A stretch of DNA of 64,000 nt from Microthyrium microscopicum (lineage: Eukaryota). Shown piece by piece: positions 44,211 to 64,000 of this stretch. The stretch spans positions 186,001 through 250,000 of the forward strand of contig MU004246.1 in assembly GCA_010405405.1 (NCBI GenBank). The letters are read 5' to 3'. Under the pieces are notes generated by a model that was not told where the DNA came from, searched no databases, and saw only the letters and a list, made by a program, of their open reading frames with translations. The position numbers and the translations under genes were made by a program. Position 1 is the first letter of the stretch, and each line of letters begins with the position of its first letter.

Positions 44211-47200
44211 CTAAACCTTCGCAAAATACGCCAACAGCTTCTCCCGCTCACCAGCCGGTAACATACTCAAAGCATGCTTCACACCCTTCGCACCAGCCAT
44301 GACATCCTCCGCCAACAACCCTGACACCTTGCGTGCAACGCTCTCTTGGCGAACAGCTTCCACCTTCGTCTCAATGTCATTGCTATGGCTCTCCAACCAG
44401 TCGGCGACGCCGGCATCATTAGTGTCGAATTGCTCGACTCCACACCAGGCGCGTAGGAGTCCGAGGCGCGCGGCACGAGGAGAAGACTCCTTGGATTCGG
44501 AGGACGCAGCTTGAGCAGACGCGATGGCGCTCAGAACACGCTCTTCAGAGAGACGACGGCGTAGACGCTGGTAGAAGAACTTACGTGCCTGGCTCCAGCG
44601 CAGGGCAGCGCGGATGGTACCCTTGGCTTGCATACGGCCTGCGCGGTCGTGCAAGTCTGCGTATTGAAGTGCGATTTGCGTGTATACTGGGAGAAGTAAT
44701 TGTTCACGCTTGGTGATTTCGCGCTTGAGTTTGGTCATGTCATCAGCAGACAACTTGGCCTTTGGATCATCGTCCTTGGAAGCAGCAGCGATGCGGCGTT
44801 TGAGATCACCGTAGGCAGGGTCTAGACGTTCCATGGTGGAGATGAGTTTGGCGCGACGGAATTTGATACCGACGATACCATCGGGCTCTAGCACACCACC
44901 ACGGGCATCCTCATCGGCGTACATTTCCATGTAGTCTGGGTTGATCGTTGGATCGACGACGACCCAGGAGCCACCACGAAGTTCGCCGTGGGGTGGAATG
45001 TAGACGAAGACTGGCTGTTCGAATTTGACGAGTGCGTCAACGATGTATGAGCCATATTTGAGGACTTCGTTGTACATGTCGCGTTGACCACCTGAGAAAC
45101 CACGCCAGTTGGCAAGAATGATGAGTGGAAGCTGTTCTCCGTGGTTGAAGTCATTGATCGCTTGTGCAGTCTTGAAAGCCGAGTTGGGATACCACACACC
45201 ACCAGCTTCAGAAGTGATCTGTTCGATGGAGTCTGGGTTGGCTGGATCGGCAGGGCTGACATTCTCGACGGTGCGAGCTTCGACTCCAATGACACCACAA
45301 GGGATGCCACCAAGACGAGCACGACCGACAACAACAGTCTTGGCCCATCCACCAAGTGCTTCTTCCCAGGAGCCTTTGTCAAAGAAACCAGGCTGGAAGC
45401 CATCGGCGTCCTCCTTACCAGCAATCATCCATCGAACATCATATGGCTGCTTCTGAGGTGGAGAGTAGACAATTTCTCTATCCCACGGATCGCTAGACAT
45501 AACTCGTGGAACGCTGTTGCCCTTCTTGTCGGGGATGTATGACATCCATTTAACAATCTTCTCGACACCAAGGAACTCATCAGCAGCGGTCATGTGGCTG
45601 ACACCATTGCGGTACATGATTTGAGTGCCACCAAGTTGCAAGTTGGATGAGTAGACCTCGCGACCAAGAACATTGTTGAGAGCTTGAGCACCAGTAAGGA
45701 TGATAGGATGACCCTCAATCTGAATAGCACGTTGACCAAGACGGACGAGGTAGGCACCGATACCTGAAAAAGTTAGTTTTCATTAAATGGATAGGAGCAT
45801 TATACATACCAACTGAGCGACAAGTTACCAAAGTGATGGTAAAGATATCCTCATAAGCTCGGCTGGTCTCACCAGCGATAAGACCAGATCCACGAAGAGA
45901 CTCAACACCAAGACCATCATCGGCACCAATGATAGCAGTGATCTTGTGTCTGAGCTCACCACCTTCCTTGATAGGTTCAGTGATGATATCGCGACGTTTT
46001 CCGTCCTCGAAACGAGCCTTCTTCTCTGGTGTGAGGTAGAGGTACTTGAAGCCCTTGTCAGGCTTTCCTTCCTCATTCCAGGCCACTGAAAAGTGTGGAA
46101 CAATTTCCTCTGCTATTCCGAGACGAGCACCAGAGTTGGCTGACAGGTAGATACGTGGAATGCCGAGTTTGCGAGCAAGTTCAGAGCACTTGTGGAAGAA
46201 AGTGTCTTCCCGTGGGCCAAAGGAACCAATCTTGAAGGTGATATCGTTGGCAATGATAATGAAGCGACGACCTTTGGGGTATTCAGGTGTCTTGGCGTTG
46301 ACAATCCATGCCACCATACCAATAGTATTGGCACCAGGCTCGCGATTGACTTCAACAACTTCATCATGCTCATCAAGGACAAGTTCGCTTGTCTCAATGC
46401 ACTCTCCCAACTTTGGCTTGAGCTTCTCGATCTGAGGGAACTTGGAGATGTAGGCATCCCATGTATTCTCGAAAGCTTGACGGAAGAGTTCAGGGAAATC
46501 ATAGATGTACTGAGTGCCGAGTTGATGGGCATTGAAACGCTTGGGTTGAAGCGCACCTTTGGTCTCGTAGGGAGTGGAGACTGGGCGCAGGTGCATGGCA
46601 CCCTTTCGAGTTGAACCAATGCTCTCGAAGACCCAATCACCGGTGCCTTTAGCGGGTAGTCGTTCTTCATACATTTCAACCTCGGCAACGAAACCAGAAG
46701 TATTGCTGATGACGATACGGATTGGTAATGGTTCACCAGTCTGAGAGTTTGTGCACACTATGCGAACCTCAACAACGGTAACCCGAAGACGCCAAGCTCG
46801 GAAACCATAGCGGCTCAGGAATCCAGCAAGTTTCTCTTGAACTTGGTTCGCTTCGAGAGGCAAGGTTTGAGCAAAGTTGATGAAGATGTGGTTCATGTCA
46901 GTGCCGTTAGAACCAATAATCTCAAGAGCATCAAGAACATCGTTCATAAGACGATCAGCCTCGGAGATGGTGTATTCGGCAATACCGATGTCCTCCCTAA
47001 TACGGCCCGCACGAACAACAGCGCGCACAAAGTAGCGCTTGTCTTGCTCATTTCCAGCATCTCTACCTTCAGCTTGATAGATATGGATGTTTCGGTTTTG
47101 CGTAAAGACAGGCTTGATGTGGAACTTGGAAAGACGTGTCAATTCAAGCTGGAAAGCGACAGCGGGTTCAATGTGACGAATTTGAGGATCTTCCTGATAA

Positions 47201-50200
47201 TGTGGGGAACGAAAAGTAAAGTAACTTGGATAAGTTCCGTCCTTGTGACCACAAACGAAAGAAATACGGCGAACACCACGATCAAGCAGCTCAGATCGGA
47301 ACTGCTCAATGATTGGGTGAATCCTCTCGAGCAGCTCATCGTCATCCTTGCCTTCAGAATCATGGATGGCAACATCCATGACTACATTGAAATCGTCATG
47401 AAGAGGCTCAATGGGAGGTCGGCGGCGAGAGGACAGGTCCGGAGTGTTGCCAGCACCTCCCTTACGGATCGATGGAAGGTTTTCGAAGCCCTTGACAAGA
47501 TATTCTTCCGCGTCTTCGATATATTCCGCTGGTACAATCACACCATGACGGCTTGGGTTGCTCTCAGCAGCCTTGACGGAGAGATATGACATATCCGAGA
47601 TGGACTTGATGCGACGACCCAATCCTCCTTCACCTGATGGTGTACCGGGTGTAGAGGGGAAGGAGGATTCAATTGGCAAGCCATAAAGACCTTGTCCAAC
47701 TTTTCTCATAGAAAAGTTCCACGAAAGGTGGAAAGGTGCCTCATCATCATGGTATTCGAGTTCACTGACAGTGTATGCACGGTAAGCACGGCGAATGTAC
47801 ACTTCTAGAGCGGCTAGGGCGATATGAGGATCCTTGTGAGCGAAGAAAATGGGAAGCACATCGAACACGGTGTATTGCGAATCGACGACCTCTTTGATGG
47901 AGTCATAATCAGGAAGACGGTGGTCCCATCCGGATTCTCCGTATTTGTGTTCTATCACAGAATTACGGAGAATATGCTCCATTTGTGCTGTTCGCTCTTC
48001 AAGAGAAGGCATGGCGCACTGGATGAGAACCTCACGGGCCTTGAGGACAACCGGAGCCGTGGGGCGACCCTCCAACTCGGTGAGTCTCGTCAAAGATTCC
48101 TTGAGGTGCTTGCTGACATTGCTTGCGCCTGGTTTGTCAGGCCGGTATGTGTCAAGGATGGCCACGATGAGTTTGTTCTTGTAGCTGACGCGAGTATGGG
48201 ACAGAACAGTCTGGACAACGCCAATAACATTCTCACGATTGCTCTCGCGAAGGCGTAGAATTGCCTCATCATCTCGCATGGTGCGAGAAGAGAACTGCTT
48301 CTCAACCTCGTAGTATTTATCAAGCAATCCCTTGATGACGGTATACTCGTGAACCTGGAGACCTTCACTGTACGACTCCATGATGGTCACAAGGGGTTGT
48401 AGAGTAGCCTTGAGGACAGGAGCATCGTTTGGCGCGACATTCTCATCCAAGAAGCGAGTGAATGCTTTCATCAACTGCTTGGATGGGAACTCTTGCTTTC
48501 GTCCAAGAGCGCGCTCAACAATATGTGATAGACTTTGCTCTAGCTTGGCTGGTGTACGAGCATGAAGAGCAGACGCTTGATTACTCCATTCTCCATATGG
48601 GAGCTCCTCATTTCGCAGCACTTCGACTAGGTTGGCCAAAATCTCTGGCATGATGAGATTGTTGTCATAACCAGCCAGAATGTTCTCAAGCGTGCCAACT
48701 AAGTAAACAAACTTCTGTGGCGGCTTTGTTCCCAGTGCCGATGGAGGTCCAAAGTCGGTCAAGCTTCCCATAAATGGTTGAGCAGATTTGACCTTGGACG
48801 GATCGTCGAGGGCGACCATTCCTAGGATGTCACCAGCCTCGAGAGCAGCGCCAGGTTGTTTGAGAAGAGTAACAATGCCGTCTTCTTGAGCAACAAGAGG
48901 CATGTACATCTTCATGACTTCGACTTCGGCATATGGTTGACCTTTCTTGATATGGGAGCCGTTGTCAATGGTGAACTTGACGAGCTTTCCTGGAGATGGA
49001 GTTCGAAGTTGAGTTGGATCATTTTCTTGCTCAAGCAAGCAAGTTTTACCATCAACTGAAAGACGAGTAGCACCCACTTCATCTTGCCAGTAGACACTGT
49101 GAGATTTGCCGCCAAGAAGGACAAGAACACCGCCATCTGTGAGTCCACGTACTGAAACTGTGACTTTGCTAGAGTTGAGGAAAAGTACGTAAGTATCGGC
49201 GCTTGCACGGGTTACGGCAAACTTGTAACGATGACCATCGTAGATAAAGTTGACATTGAAGCTGGTTCGCAGAATGTCCGCTGACGGGACTTGGCCCTTT
49301 TCGATACTTGTGCGGTATTCGGTGGTGCTGATGTCGCTGGCAATGTATGCTTTGGTGACGGCACCGCAGATGACAGCAACCATTGGGTCTGGTCGTTCAG
49401 CTGTGAGTTTCTTGGAGATGAGCTCATCAAGCCAACTGGTGGTGATGGTATTGTCTTCGAATGCTGGAGTTTCCAGAAGCTTGACTAAGTATTCAACAGT
49501 GGTTTTAAAGTCACCGCGAATGCTCAATTCTTTCAAGGCTACAACCATGTGTTTCCTCGATGCAGCTCGATTTTCACCATAGGCAAAAATGTGACCAAAC
49601 TGCGAATCGGAGAAATTGTGAATACTGGAGTTGGAACTGACAGAGAAGTAACCCCAGACATTGGAGCTACTTCTGAAATTGAGATCGTGTAAAGTTCCGC
49701 TTGAAGGCTTGAATCCCTCACTCGGATCTTCAGATGTGATACGGCAGGCAGTGGTATGACCTCTGGGCTTTGGTTTTCTTTGCTTAACCAGGCTTTCTTC
49801 TGTGGAAAAGTCGAAATCGATTTCGGTAGAGGTGTGGTGATCAACACCATAAAGAATTCGAATATCCTTGATTCGGTGTAAGGGGAGACCCATGGCAATC
49901 TGCAGTTGTGCGGCTGGAAGGTTGACGCCAGAAACCATTTCTGTAGTTGGATGCTCAACTTGGAGACGAGGGTTCAGCTCTAGGAAATAAAACTTGTCTT
50001 CCTCGTGGGAGTAAAGGTATTCCACAGTACCAGCAGAAACGTAACCCACAAGCTTTCCAAGCGCGACTGCGGCCTTTTCCATCTTCTGGAAAGTTTCTGC
50101 ACTCGCAATCGTGACAGGTGCCTCTTCGATAATCTTTTGGTGACGTCTTTGAACAGAGCAATCGCGACCAAAGAGTGAGATGTTGTGGCCGTACTGGTCA

Positions 50201-51206
50201 GCAAGTAATTGAACTTCCAAATGTCTAGCGTTACCCGCCATTTGCATGATGAAGATAGGCGAGCCAGGAATTTCACTTGCTGCTTCACGGTACTTTTCGA
50301 CGAAAACATCTTCGCTTTCAACCTTGCGAATACCTTTTCCACCACCACCTTCAGAGGCCTTGACCATGACTGGGAAACCAATCTTCTTTGCAACTTCAAG
50401 ACCCTCTTCAGGAGATGTAGTGCAGCCCTTCATGTAGACGTGTTCCTCCACGGTCACGATGCCATGTTCGTCAACTAGGACTTCATCGACTCCTGTACCC
50501 GACCAAGGTATACAGGGGACTTTGGCATGTTGTGCGACAATCGTCGAGGAGATTTTGTCACCTAGAGAGCGCATTGCTGATCCAGGAGGTCCAATGAAAA
50601 CGATTTTCTTAGGTGAGGCAGCTAGCGATTCGGGGAGCTTTGGGTTCTCTGAGGCGTGTCCCCTATATCGAGTTAGAACCATACAGATACTAGGAACGAT
50701 TTTAAACATACCAACCGGCCCATACGGCTTGAACGTTTGACCGCTCAGCGATTTCCACAATCAACTCCACATTGGCGTAGTTGTTGTTGTTGGTACCACC
50801 GGGCACTTCGACCAAGTGATCGGCCATGCGAATGTAATCGGCGTTTGCTGCCATGTCTTCGGGCGTACCCATGACGGTAAACTCGATAGCTCGCTCATCG
50901 CCAAAAGTTTCGTATGCCCACTTCCGTACTGATCGGATTTCCTTGACGGCAGCGATACCGTTGTTGGCGATCAGGACCTGTAAATTGATTAGACATGACC
51001 ACAAGTCGTTTTGAAAAGCTACATACATTTTTGATGACAGTGTGTCCTCCATGAGCTGCAACAAAGTCCTTGACCTTGGACGGTGCTGCAACAGCTAGAG
51101 AATTGCCGCCTATGAAATGTGAGGGGATGTTGTGTTTGGCGGCATTGCTGCTAGGAGTGCCATTCTGGCCTTCAGCTGCTGGAATGCCCATTCTGGAGCT
51201 TGTCAT
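44211..51206 (-). CDS. ACC1: Acetyl-CoA carboxylase (BC, BCCP and CT domains)
   Basis: [47 protein letters not shown], biotin site EVMKM, Snf1/AMPK-type site [24 protein letters not shown]; introns ~51025-50978, ~50711-50663, ~45808-45764. Confidence 0.98.
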
Positions 51207-53841: not shown

Positions 53842-56155
53842 CTAAAACGCCTGCCCACTCAACAACCGATCCCACTGAACCCACTCACTCGGCTCCAAAT
53901 CAAACGACAACAAATCCGAAAAATCACAACTAGCAAACGGCTCAGCAGCATTGCCAGAGACTACATCCGTCCCCCCCAGATCGCTTTTCTCCCCATCAAC
54001 AACCCCATCGCGCCTCGCCCGGCTCTCCCTTAACCTCACAATAAAGCCAGGCGTATCCAACTCACCACCAATATTCCCCATCCCTTCCTTCCTCTGCTCA
54101 TTCCCCTGCTCGTCCCTCGCACGCTCATTATCTCTCGCATCCTTACATTCCTCCCAAACCTGCAGCGTCCACTGCCCCAACGCCGCATAAAGTTCTTCCG
54201 TAGTCTCAGTGAATGCTTGCGGGAAATTTGTGAACAGGCTGCCAATAAGTTGCCACACCCGATCAATTTCTGGCCCAATCTTGCGATGTCGTGTCTCAAT
54301 AAGAACATAGAGTAACGTATCCCAAATATGACTCGCACTAACATACGGAATAAATTTCCGCAAACTCGGCGTCGTCGGCACCAGAACTACATATTTTAGC
54401 AATTTCGTGCCATTGACAAAAATAACATCGCGAACTGATGGCGGCACTTTCAAGTTTGCGTCAGCGAATTGGCGTGGATTGTGGGTGACGACGCGCATTT
54501 TACAGATTGACGAACGGATTATTATGGAGGCGAAATGGTGGAGGGAGTTTGATGGGTCGCAGTGCCGGAGGTAGTGGGATTCGAGAAAGTCTTGGATTTC
54601 ATTGATGATTTCATCTTTGCGTTCGAGGCTGATTTTGCTGTCGGCGAGTCCGCCCCAGCGTGCGTCGCTGGATTCGAAGGAGGTGAGTTGGCAGAGGAAG
54701 CTGATGATTTTGGTGCGTATTAGGCAGAGGATGCCGGATGTTATGCCGGTGCGTTCGGGTGGGAAGGTGGTCATTTCGGGGCTGATGTCTTCGTCTTCGA
54801 TGTTGAGGGGTGATTTGGCATCGCTGAGGAAGAGGTCGGTGGATGGCTTTGTGCCGGAGAAGTCGGAGGCGCGGCAGTCGCTGTGGACGATATGACACCA
54901 TAAGCGTCTTCGCATTTCCGTTTCAAAGGGAGAGAGGCCTAGGAGGGTGCCGTCGCGGTGGAGGCCGATGCGGCGACCGATTCGAACGGCTATACCGGAG
55001 AGGATGAAGGTGGAGTCGTCGTCGCCGTAGGAGAAGTTGCTGCGTAGGCCATACTAGTTGTGTTAGGGGGTGAGAAGCTGGAGCGACTCTGTTGGGGCTT
55101 ACAAGATATAGTGTAAAGGCTTGGAGTGTAATCATACTCGATGTTTTCATGAATCCGGCATTAATGAGCGCCTGACGTGCAGCAAGTTTATATCGTGAAA
55201 ATAGCGCGGCTCTCGCCTCGCCCAACATGCTTTCGCATTCGTCTTCTTCCAGAGATGCTGCGACCGCAAAGTAGAACGCAAAGATGACAGCCTCTTCATG
55301 TCGAGGGATGCTGTGCGGATTTTGGACAGCTCTTGATACTGTTTGCCAAAAGGAAGGAGTGTGCAGCACTTTGGTGATCGGATCGACTCGCTCTATGAAT
55401 ATTTCCCACATCTGTTGAAGTGTTCTGTAAACCGGATGAAGGTCTGCGAGACCTTTGAGGCCAGTACTGGAGTCAATACCTAGCACAAGGTCATGTTGGA
55501 GACCTTCTGCAGATGAAATGCGCACATCAGATATAGGGAGTCTTGATTCGACGATGCGTTTAACGGCGGAGGTTTGTTCAGGCTGTTGGAACTATGGATC
55601 TGGTCAGATAACATCTCTGGACTGGAAAGGCTCCCAAGGGAAGCATATATGATACTTACTTCAGTTCCCACATGGGACCAAAGACCGCTGTTGGTATAAG
55701 TTAATTCCAGTCTAGTAGCAGTCCAGGCAGGATTGTACATACCCGTCAAAATACCGTGTCGATTCCTTATTAGTAACAAGCCTTTTCTTGTTTCCATAGA
55801 AAAAGGAAGGATCACTGATTTTCGTATTTTCCAAACTTGGGCCTCTATGTGATGCTGCATCTGATTCTGAAGCTTTTTCTGTATCTGAGCGATCATCATC
55901 GACGTTGGATGGCTCGATTTCTGCACCATGTCCCAGTGACTGCAAGAGTTTCTCATATCGTCTTAATTTGGCATGGAGTCCTTCCGTGGGCAGCTTAGTC
56001 CTTTTCCGCTTACCACGAACTGGAGCTATGAAGCTACATTGAGTTGATGTTTTGGTGCAATTCGAGCAGGGGTTTTGTCGGTCGCATTTCACCTTTCGTT
56101 CGCGACATTTCAGGCACGAAAAGTTCTTTGAATCTTCTTTCGTGTCGTGCGACAT
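53842..56155 (-). CDS. Zn(II)2Cys6 transcription factor with fungal-specific TF domain (multi-exon)
   Basis: SCLKCRERKVKCDRQNPCSNCTKTSTQC; FIERVDPITKVLHTPS; AVRIGRRIGLHRDG..LGLSPFETEMRRRLW; several GT-AG introns. Confidence 0.9.
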
Positions 56156-56475
56156 TGCTCAGACCAGAGACCTGATGGATATAGAAAAGAAACCGAGCAA
56201 ATGTCAACATGGGAGAGTTGTAGGCACGTCACGAAAAAGTTCGGGGCTCGGAGGCGAGAAAGTGGATTTTGAACCCCGAGCTTCGACTCCTCCCACAAGG
56301 GGCCTCGCTGAAGAGCCATCACCTTGATACCGACAACACCGAAGAACAGAAAATTCTGGTATATATATCTTCGGCAACAGAACAGAAAACATGGCTTCCA
56401 TTTACCATTCATTATTTGCCAGATTGGCTCCCGACAGCTCCCATCCGCATAATCTGATAATCCCACTTTTCAACA

Positions 56476-58300
56476 ATGTCGAACACTCCCACCAAAGATC
56501 TCCGACAAGATGACTCTACCGAGTACCCCAGCACTGCTAAACGTATCGCTATAATAACAGTTATGTACATGTCTATATTTCTAGTCACATTGGTAATTTT
56601 CTCTTTCCTCTCCTACGTTCTCTTCTTCATTATATTCTGAATTCTAAATTGATACTAGGATCAAAACGTTATATCAACAGCTATCCCTCGAATCACGGAC
56701 GAGTTCCACTCACTGAATGACATTGGATGGTATGGAAGTGTATATCTTCTCACCACTGCCAGTTTCCAATTGGTTATGGGAAAGATCTTCAAGTTCTATC
56801 CTGCTAAACCACTCCTTCTCGGCTTCATCACGATATTCGAGATTGGATCAGCTATATGCGGCTCGGCTCCAAGTTCAGTTGTATTTATTGTTGGCCGGGC
56901 AGTGGCTGGTGTTGGCGCTGCTGGAATGTTTTCAGGAATCATGGGTGAGTTTACATTAAATTAGCATACTCGTTGGCCTTGGTGGTCTACGATCTTTGCA
57001 TTTGCTTGACATGGACTGACATTAGTGTCTAGTGGTTATGTTCCATACAATTCCTCTCAAGCAACGCCCGATATTTCAAGGGGCCTTTGCTGCGATCTTT
57101 TCGGTTGCGTCTGTTGTCGGTCCCTTAGTGGGAGGAACACTCACGGACAAGGTTACTTGGAGATGGTTTGTTTGAAATTTACCGATACATGGATGACTTC
57201 AAGCTAATAGATTGGATAGGTGCTTCTACCTCAATTTACCTGTGGGGGCAGTGACAATTATAACTACCGTCTTGATCCTGCACCTACCAAATCAAAAACT
57301 TGATGCTCAAGCAACAGGATGGGTTGCAAAACTCAAGCAACTCGATCCACTAGGCAACCTGGTCTTCTTCCCAGGAATCATATGTCTGCTACTGGCTCTT
57401 CAATGGGGAGGAACTCAGTACTCATGGAAAAATGCTCGCATAGTTGTGCTTCTTATCCTCTGTGGGCTCCTCTGTATTACCTTCGTCGGGATACAAATCT
57501 GGAAACAAGAAAATGCCACTGTTCCCCCTCGTATCGTTAAACAACGTAGCATTGCAGCAGCCTTATGGTTTGGATTCTTCAATGGAGCTGGCATGATGAT
57601 GCTGATGTATTATCTGCCCATCTGGTTCCAAGCCATCAAAGGTGCCAGCGCCATCAAATCCGGAATCATGTTACTTCCACTCGTACTCTCCAGTGTCATC
57701 AGCGCCATGGCCTCTGGCATATTCGTTTCCAAAGTCGGCTATTATGCTCCCGGCTTCCTCTTTTGCTCAATGACGACTGCGATTGGAGGTGGACTACTCA
57801 CGACCTTGACTCCGGAGAGTGGACATGCCGAATGGATTGGCTACCAAGTACTTATCGGTATTGGCCTAGGCTGTGGTATGCAAGGGCCAATGACTGTGGC
57901 TCAGACTGTTTTGGACCGCAAAGATATTGCTACTGGATCCTCTGTTGTCCAGTTTGCAAAACTTCTTGGATCAGCTATTTTCCTTCCTGTGGCTCAGAAT
58001 GTCTTTGTTAGTCATTTGATCTCAAAGCTATCTAATCTTCCGGGTATCGACCCACAAGCTATCATAACCGCTGGTGCCACAGACTTGAAAAGCTTGGCCA
58101 CTGGGGCTGATCTTGAGCTGCTTATAGCAGACTACAACGCTGCTATTGTTAATGTGTTTTACGTTATGGTGGCCACATCCGCTTTGTCTATGCTTGGCAG
58201 CTTATGCGTCGAGTGGAAGAGCTTAAAAGCCAGAGCGAACGAACAGGAGAGTAAACCTGTTGATTCCGAGAAGGCTATGGAAGTGGAAAAGTCTGGCTAG
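56476..58300 (+). CDS. MFS drug/toxin efflux transporter (DHA2, 14-TM; AflT/GliA-like)
   Basis: [88 protein letters not shown]; three introns; divergent from the Zn2Cys6 gene. Confidence 0.93.
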
Positions 58301-58710
58301 AACTGCATCATCTTCGCCCAAGTGCCTAAAAACCCCATTTAATAGACTAGAAATCTCGCCACTCAATGATAATATTTAACTTCTCCTCAAACATGTCAGA
58401 TGCACATGACTGAAGCATCATCACGAATTTCGCTCTTGCTACAGTTCTTTCTTCACAAAGTTAACTCTCGACAAGCATCAATGATACCATGGCGAGATGA
58501 CCGATGGACTGATACGACCTTATCTCTTCTTGGCTCGACATCCCATGTCAATGAATACGAGCTCCTAAAAATAACCAACGAGGTCTCAAGCTGGCACTAT
58601 CAACCTTTCTTTATTTACAGTGCTACTTCTGTCAACTCCCCGTGCTCAGCCTACCTGTGTCACCACAACCTACATTTCTACATTCTTTAATTAACACAAA
58701 CTTCTTGAAC

Positions 58711-58980
58711 ATGACGATCTATTTCGTTACTGAACACTTCCCCGACGATCCTACTCCAATCTATGAACGCTTTCGCGAAAAAGGTCGTATGGCCCCTGAC
58801 GGTCTTGTCTACATCAACAGCTGGGTCACTACAGATTTGAAGAAATGCTATCAGACTATGGAATGTGAGGACCGTCGACTTTTGGATGAGTGGATGGCGC
58901 ACTGGAGTGATTTGGTGCGGTTTGAGGTTGTTGAAGTGTTGAGTAGTGCAACGGCAGCGAAACAGATTATGGGAGACTGA
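58711..58980 (+). CDS. Small intronless DUF3303-like protein (89 aa)
   Basis: YFVTEHF..DPTPIYERFREKGRMAPDGLVYINSWVTTDLKKCYQTMECEDRRLLDEWMAHWSDLVRFEVVEVLSSATAA matches the pattern I recall for prokaryotic DUF3303 proteins. Confidence 0.75.
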   Translation: MTIYFVTEHFPDDPTPIYERFREKGRMAPDGLVYINSWVTTDLKKCYQTMECEDRRLLDEWMAHWSDLVRFEVVEVLSSATAAKQIMGD

Positions 58981-59435
58981 GATGGACCTCGTCTTAGCTG
59001 AGAATCGAGGGTCCAGTTTCTGTTCACGGAATCAGTTTTGTTGGCCGGCAGGACGGGAGCGCTGTATGTTGTCACCGTACTAATATTAGAAGCTATCGTA
59101 CACACAACTTGGCAAAACCTGTACTTACCACTCGTACTACACAAGCTCCGCCTTATCATTTGTTCTTCCCAAATCTCGTACAACCCCAAGCAACTGATGA
59201 TGGCAGTGACGGCCATGAGGCAGATTGCGAGGATTTATAGACAACGCTGTTGGACTGATAATCGGATGATGAAACACGGGCGAGGCTGAGCAGCTATCAA
59301 TTATTTCTTTGTGCAGTTTTGTGCAGTTCTCGGTATAAATCCTCAAAGTTCTAGACTAGAATGTTGAATGCGCATTCTATAGTTTTCAATTGTCTACCAC
59401 TTCGCCATTCTATACTCAAAATCAATCTGAAAAAG

Positions 59436-60191
59436 ATGACCTGTTCGATCTCACGATTCTTTCTCGGTTTGACCATTGCATTAGCCATCACATCGTTGGC
59501 AAGTGCTGTTCCTTCCTCACTTGATAGCACAAACAGCCAGCTTGAATATGGGTTGAAGCATCTTCAAACTCGAGCTCTATATACTACAGCATATGGCCTG
59601 AATATGACAGAACTATTCCAGGTCCATCCACTACAAAAACGCTCAGCTGGACTTTTCTGGGGCCCACATACACTCGAAAACCTGAAGTTCTACATAACCA
59701 ATCCTCATGATGGATATGCTGGTCCCAAAGTTGGTAAGTGTTGCGCTTGATTCTTAAAATTCGCTCGGTGGCCGATGCATAGAACACTCGAACACCGAGT
59801 CCTCATTGCGTTTCGACATGAAAAATCATCCCCATTTGACTTCTGGCTGACTTTTCTAGGCAATCAAAATCATATCAATGTACACGTCGACAAAGCCGCC
59901 GATAGAGGCACATGGAAGCCCGTATTGAACCTTCATGTCTCAAAGTACAATCGCGGGAGCCAGCATTGTCTTTACGTTTGGGACAGTGTTACCGGCCGGG
60001 TGGTCTTTGACAGCTGCTTTGATGATTTTAAAACGACAGCTGAGAAGGCAATATCAGCAGCAAAAGATCTAGTCGAGGACTTATTGAAAAATGCGAACTT
60101 TATAGCAAAGGCTATTCTAATCGCTGCCTTATTGGCAGCTTTGATAGCTGTCGTGGCAACTTTGTCAGTTGGTGCTGTTGCGGTGGCCTAG
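59436..60191 (+). CDS. Secreted prepro-type protein with Kex2-like KR site and hydrophobic C-terminus (2 exons)
   Basis: Signal FFLGLTIALAITSLASA; pro-region ending LQKR; intron 59734-59859 (GTAAGT..GCTGAC..TAG); mature part NPHDGYAGPKVGNQNHINVHV..LNLHV..CLYVWDSVTGRVVFDSCFDD; tail ILIAALLAALIAVVATLSVGAVAVA. Confidence 0.78.
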
Positions 60192-60602
60192 GTACCTGGC
60201 ATCGTAGCAAGGAACGAGAAATAATGTGACGCTCCGGTCTGGAATGGGGATATAAGGTCCAATAGTGTTTTATCTTGAGAAAAGCAGAAGAAGGTTTCGA
60301 ATTGCTGGACTTTTTATACAACATGTTAAGCTAGAATAGTCTCATTTATGATCCACTGCTTGCTTCGTTCGAAGTCGGCAAACTTCAAGAGGAATATATT
60401 TAATAACATTAGCTAGAAGTCGAAGGATGGCAAAATGTTTTCTAATTCTAACTACTCCGTCTTTGAAAATCCGTAATGTTCCTTTCTCAGTCGCACCACC
60501 AACACCCATACGTCAATGATGGAGCATAGACTAATTCTATTCTCAATTTCTTGGAATGACAATCTTCCCATGCTTCGATTCATCGCTGTCTCTCGTATTG
60601 AC

Positions 60603-62288
60603 TTATGCTTTACCCATCGCAATCAACGCAAGCAAGGCGATGTTCATGACCGCAACCACCAACCACAATCCGACCGAAGAAATGGTCATAAGTAAACCAT
60701 TGGACATATCAACTCCCTGCTCATTTATCATCCTGGCTGTCACAGAAACACTATTCTTGCTCTTTTCGTCGATTCTGTCTGCAGATACCGTCATATACTT
60801 CTGTCGGCAGGTTATGTAAACCAGGGGAGCACTAATGACGGGCAAAAGAATGCTTAGGATGACTTGACTGCCAGTCAATGCATCCCCTAAAGCATCTTTT
60901 CCTCCCTTGGCGGCAATTGCAATTGCTGGAATGAGAGCGAGGATCCGAGTAATGAGTCTCATAACCCAAGGAGAAATCTTCCATTGCATGAATCCTTCAG
61001 TTGAAATTTGACTGGCCACTGTGCATACAATGCCGGCACTTATACCACTCATTAGGAGTGCCAAAGCAAAAACGATGCCAGCTGCTGGAGCAATTGTCTT
61101 GTTGAGCAGGTCGAAGATGCCGAAAAGGTCGGTGTCTGCTGCAGGGTTTCCGAACAACGAGGCGCCAGCGACAATGAGAATGGCACTGTTGACAAAAAGT
61201 GCAAATGTGAACAGCTGTACTGTAAGCTCGGCGATGGAGTATTTCATGCAAGAGTCGATTGCATTAAGTGTAGGACGGTATACGCCATTGTCGGTTTGCG
61301 TGACGTCGAGACCAGCATCTTCGTCGAACTTTTGAAGACGAGGTTGAACCATACCACTTCCTAGGAAAAGAGAATGTGGCATAACCGTGGCGCCGAGAAT
61401 ACCACATGCAAGATAAAGCCTGAAGGAGTAAGTATTTGTGCATACATGCGATATATGTATCTTACCCTCTTCCCTCTACCAAAGCTTTTGAAGGTAAATA
61501 ACCGAGGAAAACCTCTCCAACGTTGGTGTTTTTGAGAAGAGAAAGTTCAACGCAGAAGCTGACAACCACAGTCAAGACCAAGGCGGCGACAGCATATTCG
61601 AAAGCTTGAAGTCCTTTGGATGCTCCTTTGGGTCGGTAAAAAATGAGGACAAAGATGACATCCAGTATGGTAAGACCAACAGAAATGATAATGTTGACTT
61701 TGAAGAGAAGAGTTATAGCTATTGCAGTGCCAATAACCTGGTTGAAATGATCAGTAGCGTTCGAGGTCTGACAACTCAGATACGTACTTCTGCAAAATCT
61801 GTAGCAATAATTGCAATCTCACTAATGATATATAGAGAGATGAACATCCACTTGGGAAGATGTTCTCGGCAATTGTCTCCCAGTGACCCTCCCGTGACGC
61901 TACCCATCTTGATGCAAAGAGTTTGGAAAAAGATTGCAATCAAGTTACTTAACAATACCATGAAAAGGAGGCTGAATTTTGAGTCTGCACCAGCAGCAAT
62001 ATCGGTGGCATAGTTTCCAGGATCAATGTAGGCCACAGCGACCATAAAACCAGGTCCAATAAACTTCCCGAATTTCTTGATTGTTCGGCCGGCATGAGCA
62101 AGTTTGAGTAAAGCCACTTCGCGAGGTGGAAGCTTTCCTCGAGTTCCCATCATGACACTATCATCAGTAATGATCCGAGTTATGGTCCGACCATTCTTCT
62201 CAGCATCAAAAGAGAGGCGGTTGAGAGAATCATTGTCACTTTCGCGGCGTTCGACTTGTATCCCCGACTTCGCAAAAGATGGATCCAT
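60603..62288 (-). CDS. NRAMP-family divalent metal (Mn/Fe) transporter, Smf1/Smf2-like (start approximate)
   Basis: FIGPGFMVAVAYIDPGNYATD, EIAIIATDFAEV, GILGATVMPHSLFLGS, FALALLMSGISAGIVCT; introns ~61785-61738 and ~61465-61421. Confidence 0.93.
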
Positions 62289-64000
62289 TGTGTGATTGCC
62301 GTCTATGTTCTTGTTGGCCGGCCAGGAAGATATATGACGGTACAAAATGCACAATGAGATATCAATGAAAGAATGTGACCAGCACTTGAAGCTGCTGTAG
62401 ATTGAATTGAATCTAGTATATACACAACATATCATTTGGCCAAGAGACTGAATCTATAATTATCATATCAGCCAGGCTAGGTTCTCTTCGATCACAAACT
62501 GTTTCCATAATGAACACCGCTCAAAGATGCTATTCGTTTCTACAGAAAAGAAACCGACCCACGAGAGCAATGTTTTCTGTACCTATAAGGTAATTGTATA
62601 CAGCTTGGCTAGGGTGTGGATATCTAGGAGTAGATCTGGGCGAAGAGATAGCCTGACACTGCTGGTTTCAGATCTTGTGCGTTTAGTGATGGCGAACCAT
62701 TCTTTTCTTTGCGAATCAGTGAGCGGTGTAGTTTCAGAACCGCGGCAACCCCGCATATATATCTTCCTCATCAATTACTAGATCTGATAAAGAATTGTTT
62801 TGAAGCATTTGTCTGTATTGAGAGTCCTGTGCGAGCTCTTACTTTCCTCTGCGATCGCTTGTTGTACTCTACCAATAGTGCACGAAACCAATTCCAGCCA
62901 TTGTGATAGTAAAAGCATAATCATAAAAGATTATTCAATTAGTAAGAATAGTCGTTCAGTACTAATTACACACAATATCATCATAATCTTGCAGTGACAA
63001 CTGTCAAGGATTTGGACGTTTAACACGGTATCATCACAATCCCAAGAAGCCAAGTCGAGGACAAGAGATCAACAGAGCTTATTACCTTTAAATCTCAGAT
63101 CGCGATATCATCCAGTCGCGATTCAAGAGGTATGCCAAGGTCAATGCCTTGGCTGCGTGTCACAGCGTCGAGGTCAGAAACATTGGTGGAAGTCTATCAA
63201 GAACCTGAAACGCGAAGAGAAGAAGACCATTCTACATCACTTGACGATGGAAAAGAAAGTTAAATTCTCAAGAGCCACCACTAGGAAGAGAAGTACAGAA
63301 AAAGAAAATGATAGTGACACATTTCTTTATTGAATATGCACGCCGAATTTCTTTAGTATGATCTACATGTCAACAAGCATATTGCAGTTGAATCGAAGAT
63401 CTATTGGCTGAATATCATGCCTTTACTATTCAATGATGCTCTAGCGTGCTTCTGCTGCACGAAATGGATTGTGTTTTCAATTAGGCCTAAGTGGATTATC
63501 GAGACAAAATCTCCAGATTGTCATGCCAGAAGCGTAGCAAGGAACCATGCAACTACATGACATCGGCATAGTTATGACCAAATACTGGTCCCTGGATTCA
63601 TCCTGTCATACTTTGTATTGTCCTTTCTATATTCAAATTTCCGCATCATGAAGTCAAAGCGACCTTGGCTCTAAACACAATGTTGCAGCCAAGCTACAGT
63701 ATCCTTCCAATTTCAAGGTTTGCTCAAAATGTTATAGGAGACTTGAACCGCATTATGAGCAGTGTTTAACCATTCTTCCAATCGAAACCTTTTGTTTACT
63801 TGTACCTTTGACCTTCATAGCGCCTTTCAAAAATGCATCCTTCTAATGACAGCACAAACGAAAAGCCCTCTCTGGCAACGACAACCTCATCAACAAATCC
63901 GCAACAGTCTAGTGTCACGCCAATTGACGTTGGAACAGAGCCAAGTGGGAACAATGATATCCAACATGATTCAAAGATACCTGCCACCAGGTCTTCAAAT

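Follow-up and report, generated by a model that had tools for sequence, protein, structure and literature searches.

An intact single-exon DUF3303 gene in the chromosome of the fungus Microthyrium microscopicum and its probable origin in an old bacterial transfer

In this study we describe a small gene of the family DUF3303 in the fungus Microthyrium microscopicum. The window, that is the whole stretch of DNA that was analysed, comprises 64,000 nucleotides (positions 186,001 to 250,000 of the forward strand of contig MU004246.1, assembly GCA_010405405.1), and the gene lies on its plus strand at positions 58711 to 58980. It is recorded as BT63DRAFT_461409 (protein KAF2663298.1) on a contig of 506,503 bp. 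We found that the open reading frame (ORF) is a real, intact, single-exon gene of M. microscopicum. An old horizontal transfer from a bacterium to a fungus is probably the best explanation of its origin, ahead of vertical descent with losses, and is not proven.

The ORF runs from ATG to TGA over 89 codons with an intact frame, and its start is supported by the homologues, which share the position of the initial methionine. When the product was searched with profile hidden Markov models against Pfam, it matched PF11746 (DUF3303) with 80.8 bits, compared with a curated gathering cut-off of 21.2, and with an E-value of 8.4e-23. The match spans the whole domain (residues 4-84 of 89 on profile positions 3-86 of 92) and, as a sequence match, is far beyond chance. 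The NCBIfam search of the same protein gave nothing meaningful. In an alignment of 111 sequences of the family (A2) the protein keeps the five invariant residues E8, R26, W61, W65 and D67, and likewise all 17 nearly invariant positions (Y18, R20, G25, P29, G31, L32, Y34, S37, W38, C46, Q48, M50, E51, F71, E72, V76 and S79). The original prediction had read a full-length DUF3303 pattern in the ORF, which the Pfam match and the 22 of 22 conserved positions bear out. It had also described an intronless ORF amid intron-containing fungal genes, and this agrees with a contig of the public run X1 (see below), in which the neighbours are spliced and no skip occurs anywhere in 57219-59732, the DUF3303 ORF included.

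58711-58980, plus strand: intronless DUF3303 coding sequence (ORF, PF11746 match, invariant residues, no joint in the X1 contig)

Judged by sequence matches, the relatives of the protein come, in their great majority, from bacteria or from environmental samples. When 1.84 billion representatives were searched exhaustively, the threshold of E<=1e-3 was passed by 1291 clusters, that of E<=1e-10 by 501 and that of E<=1e-30 by only 2, one of which was Microthyrium's own deposited model. Three word-seeded searches were made in a collection of 5.8 billion proteins. The Microthyrium query gave 49 matches from 50 candidates, its relative P0002 gave 97 from 98, and a 9-sequence profile matched 7766 of 8000 scored candidates at E<=1e-5, the best 120 of these 7766 being the rows used. 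The organism labels among the matches listed were Microthyrium (its own record), Lepidopterella palustris (P0234), Gemmatimonadaceae/Gemmatimonadetes, Candidatus Binatia and Pyrinomonadaceae, and most rows carried no label; a Vicinamibacterales label came from a cluster look-up. The only fungal labels among these listed matches (49, 97 and 120 rows) were the own record and L. palustris. In the ESM Atlas the nearest clusters were all DUF3303 and marked 'Bacteria 100%', a result which, as the tool itself warns, says nothing about transfer.

Matches were found in 32 of 301 sampled Gemmatimonadota genomes (about 11%, best identity 62%, the unpublished G162 included) and in 40 of 301 sampled Acidobacteriota genomes (about 13%, best identity 64%, the unpublished G457 and G329 included), about a dozen of the latter 40 being distant paralogues at 23-37% identity. 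Genomes of GTDB species representatives contributed 8 loci from five or more phyla, with identities of 47-63%, labelled Terriglobia, Gemmatimonadetes, betaproteobacterium, a metagenome-assembled genome (MAG) labelled Heliobacteriaceae, Acidiferrales, Gemmatimonadales, unclassified bacterium and Chthoniobacterales. In soil bacteria, too, DUF3303 therefore belongs to the accessory genes. The 8 genome loci and 35 metagenome loci at 44-64% identity make 43 loci, and all 43 have a GC content of 53-69% and bacterial neighbours. The metagenome scan by peptide words of the Microthyrium protein returned loci of at most 64% identity, all GC-rich and none from the indel clade described below. Among 72,556 plasmid records two matched, both distant (34-37%), so there was no sign of a plasmid-borne close subfamily. 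Two longer forms of the protein were also seen: in P0093 (304 aa) the DUF3303 domain precedes approx. 215 residues that match no Pfam family, and P0064 (229 aa) ends in a hydrophobic stretch that matches DoxX_2 weakly (E 0.0035). A search of one literature library found no paper naming 'DUF3303' and one paper mentioning 'PF11746' or 'IPR021734'.

The closest relatives were P0002 (70% identity) and P0003 (69%), followed by P0213, P0214, P0307, P0324 and the fragment P0077, over a range of 61-70%. All of them share with the Microthyrium protein an indel signature, one residue more after the start and one residue less in the first loop. A maximum-likelihood (ML) tree was calculated with IQ-TREE from 71 rows and 90 columns under LG+C20+F+G4 by posterior mean site frequencies (PMSF), with a bootstrap correlation of 0.968, which is not fully settled. 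The mis-spliced deposited protein P0001, rows with a domain coverage below 85-88% and near-duplicates at identities over 80%, 72% or 62% were excluded before trees were built. A distant DUF3303 from a Burkholderia plasmid (37% identity) served as the root, on a long outgroup branch (5.9) that can be placed almost anywhere in the tree.

In this tree the indel-signature rows and the Microthyrium protein form a clade with an ultrafast bootstrap (UFBoot) of 70 and a Shimodaira-Hasegawa-like approximate likelihood ratio (SH-aLRT) of 80. Both fungal proteins belong to a clade of 21 rows (UFBoot 96 / SH-aLRT 87) that also contains one row of Vicinamibacterales and three of Gemmatimonadota; outside it, Binatia (83/81) and Gemmatimonadales (92/81) follow next. 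Within the 21-row clade the Lepidopterella protein pairs weakly with a Gemmatimonadaceae row (42/70) and not with the Microthyrium clade. The path length to the nearest rows lacking the signature is 0.85, compared with a median end branch of 0.59, and no long stem parts the fungal rows from the bacterial ones. In an earlier quick tree of 185 rows, 6 of 182 branches were starred.

The base composition of the ORF (GC 0.476, GC at third codon positions, GC3, 0.517) and its codon use match those of the host, and its GC and GC3 are unlike those of the bacterial homologue genes examined. The GC3 of local fungal exons is 0.47-0.61, that of nine bacterial homologue genes 0.61-0.80, and the codon-use index of the ORF against the local exons is 0.76, where the local exons themselves reach 0.70-0.81. 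It follows that a transfer, if it took place, was old or came from a donor that was not GC-rich.

Taken together, we favour the following course. A DUF3303 gene would have been acquired horizontally by a fungal ancestor from a soil bacterium, the named bacteria nearest to the Microthyrium copy being Gemmatimonadota and Acidobacteriota. The event would be old enough for base composition and codon use to have reached host values, and DUF3303 would now stand as a lone inserted gene amid core fungal genes.

Several results weigh against this account. The indel-signature relatives are environmental proteins carrying no organism label and may be either fungi or the donor lineage; an index of amino-acid composition could not separate possible eukaryotic rows from low-GC bacteria. 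With 90 columns, 36 of the 68 inner branches of the tree are unresolved. In approximately unbiased (AU) tests, neither the Microthyrium clade and Lepidopterella as one clade (difference in log-likelihood, delta lnL, 3.05; p 0.441) nor a joint fungal group beside the Burkholderia outgroup (delta lnL 5.95; p 0.407) was rejected, so that the position nested in bacteria rests on the ML tree and the distribution. The family evolves slowly, with a mean column identity of 50% over 111 diverse members, and approx. 60% identity to bacteria is therefore in itself no sign of a recent transfer. Finally, the family is recorded from other fungi: in a table of PMC13562122, 20 Beauveria genomes have one PF11746 entry each. 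The label given to PF11746 in that table does not fit the Pfam name DUF3303.

Going by the Beauveria entries, the family exists in Sordariomycetes and is not confined to Microthyrium. The Beauveria proteins were absent among the matches listed in our protein searches, which suggests that they are more distant from the Microthyrium copy. One supplement of a paper on 101 Dothideomycetes contains no PF11746 entry.

A variant of the transfer account, which we regard as a tentative but serious possibility, assumes two independent transfers from related soil bacteria, one into Microthyrium and one into Lepidopterella. Within the 21-row clade the ML tree assigns the two fungal proteins to separate subclades, the indel signature occurs in the Microthyrium clade only, and their mutual identity is 57%, all of which would fit two events. 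On the other side, joining both fungi costs only 3.05 lnL units (p 0.441), and both fungi are Dothideomycetes.

Rather unlikely in our judgement is an old fungal gene that descended vertically, perhaps from a single, very ancient transfer to the early Ascomycota, and has since disappeared from most lineages, so that the Microthyrium copy would not be specific to its lineage. Such a history would account for a full-length homologue in Lepidopterella as a second Dothideomycete, for the single PF11746 entries in the 20 Beauveria genomes of the table cited above and for the fully host-like composition. It would also agree with AU tests that reject neither a single fungal clade nor a basal position, and the indel-signature clade at 61-70% identity could consist of fungi. 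It is opposed by the small number of fungal labels, only two among the matches listed from a collection of 5.8 billion proteins, and by the identities: the two fungal proteins share 57% with each other, less than the up to 64% that each shares with Gemmatimonadota or Acidobacteriota. The ML tree joins Lepidopterella to the Gemmatimonadaceae row (42/70) rather than to Microthyrium, and the long stem between fungi and bacteria is missing.

The bacteria-to-fungus transfer put forward by the original prediction is thus the best-supported account, through the bacterial relatives and the 96/87 clade, but it was left unproven by the AU tests (p 0.441 and 0.407), the 90 columns, the Beauveria entries in PMC13562122 and the closest relatives, which are environmental proteins that carry no organism label. 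The prediction had named an ML tree and patchy fungal matches as its checks, and each came out in part. Both fungi lie inside a clade with bacteria, but the AU tests do not reject the alternatives; only two fungal labels appeared among the matches listed (best 120 of 7766 in the profile search), but PF11746 is listed for the 20 Beauveria genomes.

The gene is set among the following features of the window.

45715-50760, minus strand: acetyl-CoA carboxylase (neighbour gene scan)
53842-56158, minus strand: fungal Zn2Cys6 transcription factor (Pfam Zn_clus E 7.5e-10, Fungal_trans E 1.2e-08)
56500-58300, plus strand: MFS_1 transporter of the major facilitator superfamily (MFS), 5' end unmapped (Pfam MFS_1 E 2.5e-14 and 9.2e-11; GT..AG joints in the X1 contig)
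58920-59092, plus strand: intron of the deposited gene model, 173 nt, GT..AG, unsupported (splice reconstruction; X1 contig jointless; relatives keep the C-terminus)
59093-59240, plus strand: second exon of the deposited gene model (YRTHNLAKP...CEDL*), probably non-coding (tail found in none of the relatives)
59361-60191, plus strand: downstream gene (ORFs; one GT..AG intron at about 59733-59858; no Pfam match)
60603-62453, minus strand: Nramp metal-ion transporter in three reading frames, with introns (PF01566 matches three successive ORFs, E 1.5e-41, 5e-11 and 6.8e-21)

The MFS gene has introns at about 56592-56657, 56944-57031 and 57165-57218, and its stop at 58300 lies 410 nt upstream of the DUF3303 ATG. 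The original prediction had called it a toxin-type efflux pump, which was not confirmed: only MFS_1 and a weak Sugar_tr match were obtained, and no toxin-pump family even at E<=1. The downstream gene begins 380 nt past the DUF3303 ORF and matched no Pfam family at E<=0.01. By eye, its product has an N-terminal hydrophobic stretch resembling a signal peptide.

The public run X1, which we guess to be RNA, contains 88% of the sampled words of 56500-60300, and one X1 contig of 8915 letters aligns to this region without differing letters. GT..AG skips occur in it at four places, of which the MFS gene accounts for three and the downstream gene for one (about 59733-59858). These skips indicate that the contig comes from spliced molecules and that the DUF3303 frame is carried in them unspliced, which fits with transcription of the region. 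The contig spans three genes and says nothing on a separate transcript, the expression level or a rare spliced form.

For this reason one could think of the ORF as a relic, decaying or never translated, that merely travels in the transcripts of its neighbours, in the 3' untranslated region of the MFS gene or by read-through, as a contig covering three genes does not imply a transcript of its own and no run is recorded as RNA. We consider this very unlikely. The frame is open, with the start and the end typical of the family, 22 of 22 conserved positions are kept and the predicted fold is confident (see below), and an intact frame, conserved positions and a confident fold would not be expected of a neutral stretch of 267 nt at such divergence. 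Bacterial contamination or an assembly chimera, which the bacterial type of the sequence and the missing intron might bring to mind, is almost certainly wrong: the ORF is physically part of the fungal chromosome, because spliced genes flank it at 410 nt upstream and 380 nt downstream on the 506-kb contig and the X1 contig joins these neighbours and the ORF without differing letters (a refutation unless run and assembly share a faulty library), and its GC and GC3 are host-like, unlike those of all bacterial homologue genes examined.

The deposited protein (P0001) is 118 aa long, agrees with the ORF for approx. 70 residues and then continues in an unrelated tail of 49 residues. It could be reproduced by one GT..AG splice only, in which 58920-59092 is dropped and 59093-59240 is added. 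Read without an intron, the dropped stretch contains the last 20 codons, which are conserved, as well as the stop and 3' flank. With the deposited intron the domain loses its final strand and helix, and all relatives keep both, as ...VRFEVVEVLSSA... Since the X1 contig reads through the intron and the relatives retain the C-terminus, we concluded that the deposited gene model is wrong and its intron false. A public gene model can thereby be corrected in which a false intron destroys the sole recognisable domain.

A model of the protein was calculated with AlphaFold2 (AF2) from the 111-row alignment and reached a mean predicted local distance difference test score (pLDDT) of 97.5 and a predicted template modelling score (pTM) of 0.85. 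Its elements are strands at 2-9, 33-39, 45-52 and 70-76 and helices at 15-24, 55-65 and 79-87, in the order beta-alpha-beta-beta-alpha-beta with a C-terminal helix, a ferredoxin-like topology. The small alpha/beta protein anticipated by the original prediction is in agreement with this model. Foldseek returned no row at E<=1e-3 for the model; its best rows, at E 1.1e-3 to 1.5e-2 and template modelling (TM) scores of 0.5-0.6, were ABM monooxygenases, NIPSNAP, Dabb and EthD (0.55-0.60 for these four) and ribosomal protein S6. In the VIA search all Z scores were below 8, with matches that include TM1266, ClcF, TftG, ACT/RAM domains, S6 and SCO4226 (Z 6.5). A sequence search of the PDB gave only chance OspA repeats for the single protein and nothing for the family profile.

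The predicted homodimer scored 0.77, and the best of three controls 0.02. This mark was attained by 21 of 30 solved same-chain pairs and by 0 of 23 solved single chains (17 of 29 and 0 of 30 for eukaryotes). Between the dimer runs at least 97% of contacts coincide, and the pLDDT of the partner is at least 93. The predicted interface involves all four strands (at 3-5, 36-41, 46-49 and 74-79) and the C-terminal helix. The model thus supports a homodimer, though its good score may stem from a resemblance to already solved dimers of the ferredoxin-like fold. Accepting the prediction, the protein would be a homodimer of the cytosol in which two ferredoxin-like subunits pack against each other with their sheets to form a dimeric alpha/beta barrel; a sheet-to-sheet homodimer is typical of the dimeric alpha/beta-barrel superfamily. 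The conserved residues E8, R20, R26, Q48, E51, W61, W65 and D67 would then form a pocket on the helix-facing side of the sheet, possibly for a small ligand, a metal or cofactor-free catalysis. Its putative lining consists of E8, Q48 and M50 on strands, R20, W61 and W65 on helices and R26 and D67 in loops, where the facing of the residues was deduced from strand alternation against the predicted interface and not measured.

The neighbourhoods of bacterial DUF3303 genes were scanned for 100 of 125 adjacent ORFs at 20 of 25 loci; five loci (L012, L022, L027, L029 and L032) were left out for a repeated ORF layout. At the 20 loci no GYD-domain neighbour was found at E<=1e-5. A class I/II aminotransferase lies upstream of DUF3303 in L021, L023, L025 and L030, an OPT transporter lies near it in L037 and L033/L043, and a beta-carbonic anhydrase occurs in L007 and L008. 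Several metagenome loci show the gene order of genome loci again (within L015/L040, within L033/L043 and within L007/L008/L012), e.g. M20 peptidase, DUF3303, anthranilate synthase; these are probably the same or sister organisms and not independent contexts. On a Burkholderia pyrrocinia plasmid (NZ_CP150851.1, L044:1-3222) a distant DUF3303 (37%) stands directly behind a set of MFS, HlyD and outer-membrane efflux genes. This order may echo the MFS gene upstream of the fungal ORF, and coincidence is possible.

With regard to function, the proposals above are inferred throughout, from the model and by analogy, and four results speak against them. The fold matches appear to reflect a common ferredoxin-like arrangement only and are generic. 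No partner gene is common across the bacterial lineages at the 20 loci. The Microthyrium protein has no match to the Pfam SCO4226-like family PF14026 at E<=10 and is not a member of it, and hhalign of A2 with three SCO4226-like proteins from bacterial genomes gave a weak alignment (probability 16.7%, 31 columns). A bolder picture, which we consider improbable, sees in the indel-signature clade (Microthyrium, P0002/P0213, P0003/P0077, P0214/P0307 and P0324) a hidden fungal radiation. One bacterial DUF3303 would have been domesticated by ascomycetes of soil and leaf litter and would now cooperate, as a small dimer that binds metals or xenobiotics, with the adjacent MFS and Nramp transporters, as a eukaryotic counterpart of the nickel-sequestering SCO4226.

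Single-gene bacterial transfers into fungi are common, and no long-standing question is answered by the present one. If true, the Microthyrium case is a well-documented single bacterial gene fixed in a fungal chromosome: linked, adapted in composition and intact. DUF3303 is a very large family of soil bacteria with thousands of clusters, and no function is known for any member; an intact copy in a culturable fungus offers a second genetic system for its function.

Compared with known systems, the Microthyrium gene is closest to bacterial DUF3303 genes (e.g. locus L036 of the Terriglobia MAG JAIQFS010000042.1, and Gemmatimonadota MAGs), which likewise are small stand-alone genes of the same length with a full domain, the invariant residues and 58-64% identity. 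It differs from them in one extra N-terminal residue, one fewer in the first loop, and the host-like composition set against their 53-69% GC DNA and GC3 of 0.61-0.80. The fungal counterpart, K432DRAFT_379436 of Lepidopterella palustris CBS 459.81 (P0234; a DUF3303 domain protein in UniRef), has 90 aa and a full-length DUF3303 match (E 2e-23) and belongs to the same 21-row clade. It differs from the Microthyrium protein by its 57% identity, by lacking the indel signature and by not being its sister in the ML tree, although a joint clade was not rejected.

Among proteins outside the family, SCO4226 of Streptomyces coelicolor is described in PMC4186839 as a ferredoxin-like dimer of 82 residues per chain with four bound nickel ions, whose expression responds to nickel by induction. 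The likeness of its structure (PDB 4OI3) to the Microthyrium model is that of a small ferredoxin-like dimer subunit (Z 6.5, root-mean-square deviation 3.0, 74 residues aligned), and the nickel sites of SCO4226 lie on its surface. Weak matches of 47 of the 111 DUF3303 members to PF14026 (best E 4.5e-05) point to a possible remote link between the two families. The ABM-type dimeric alpha/beta-barrels (RslO4 7BIO, Rv0793 1Y0H and LsrG 2GFF) and NIPSNAP, Dabb and EthD share the beta-alpha-beta-beta-alpha-beta topology at approx. 90-100 residues, but have 9-22% identity to the Microthyrium protein, and equally good scores are reached by ribosomal protein S6 and by ACT/RAM domains; no sequence-profile link between DUF3303 and ABM was found. 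The putative pocket is proposed by analogy with the cofactor-free ABM-type enzymes and the nickel-binding dimer SCO4226, which operate in this manner.

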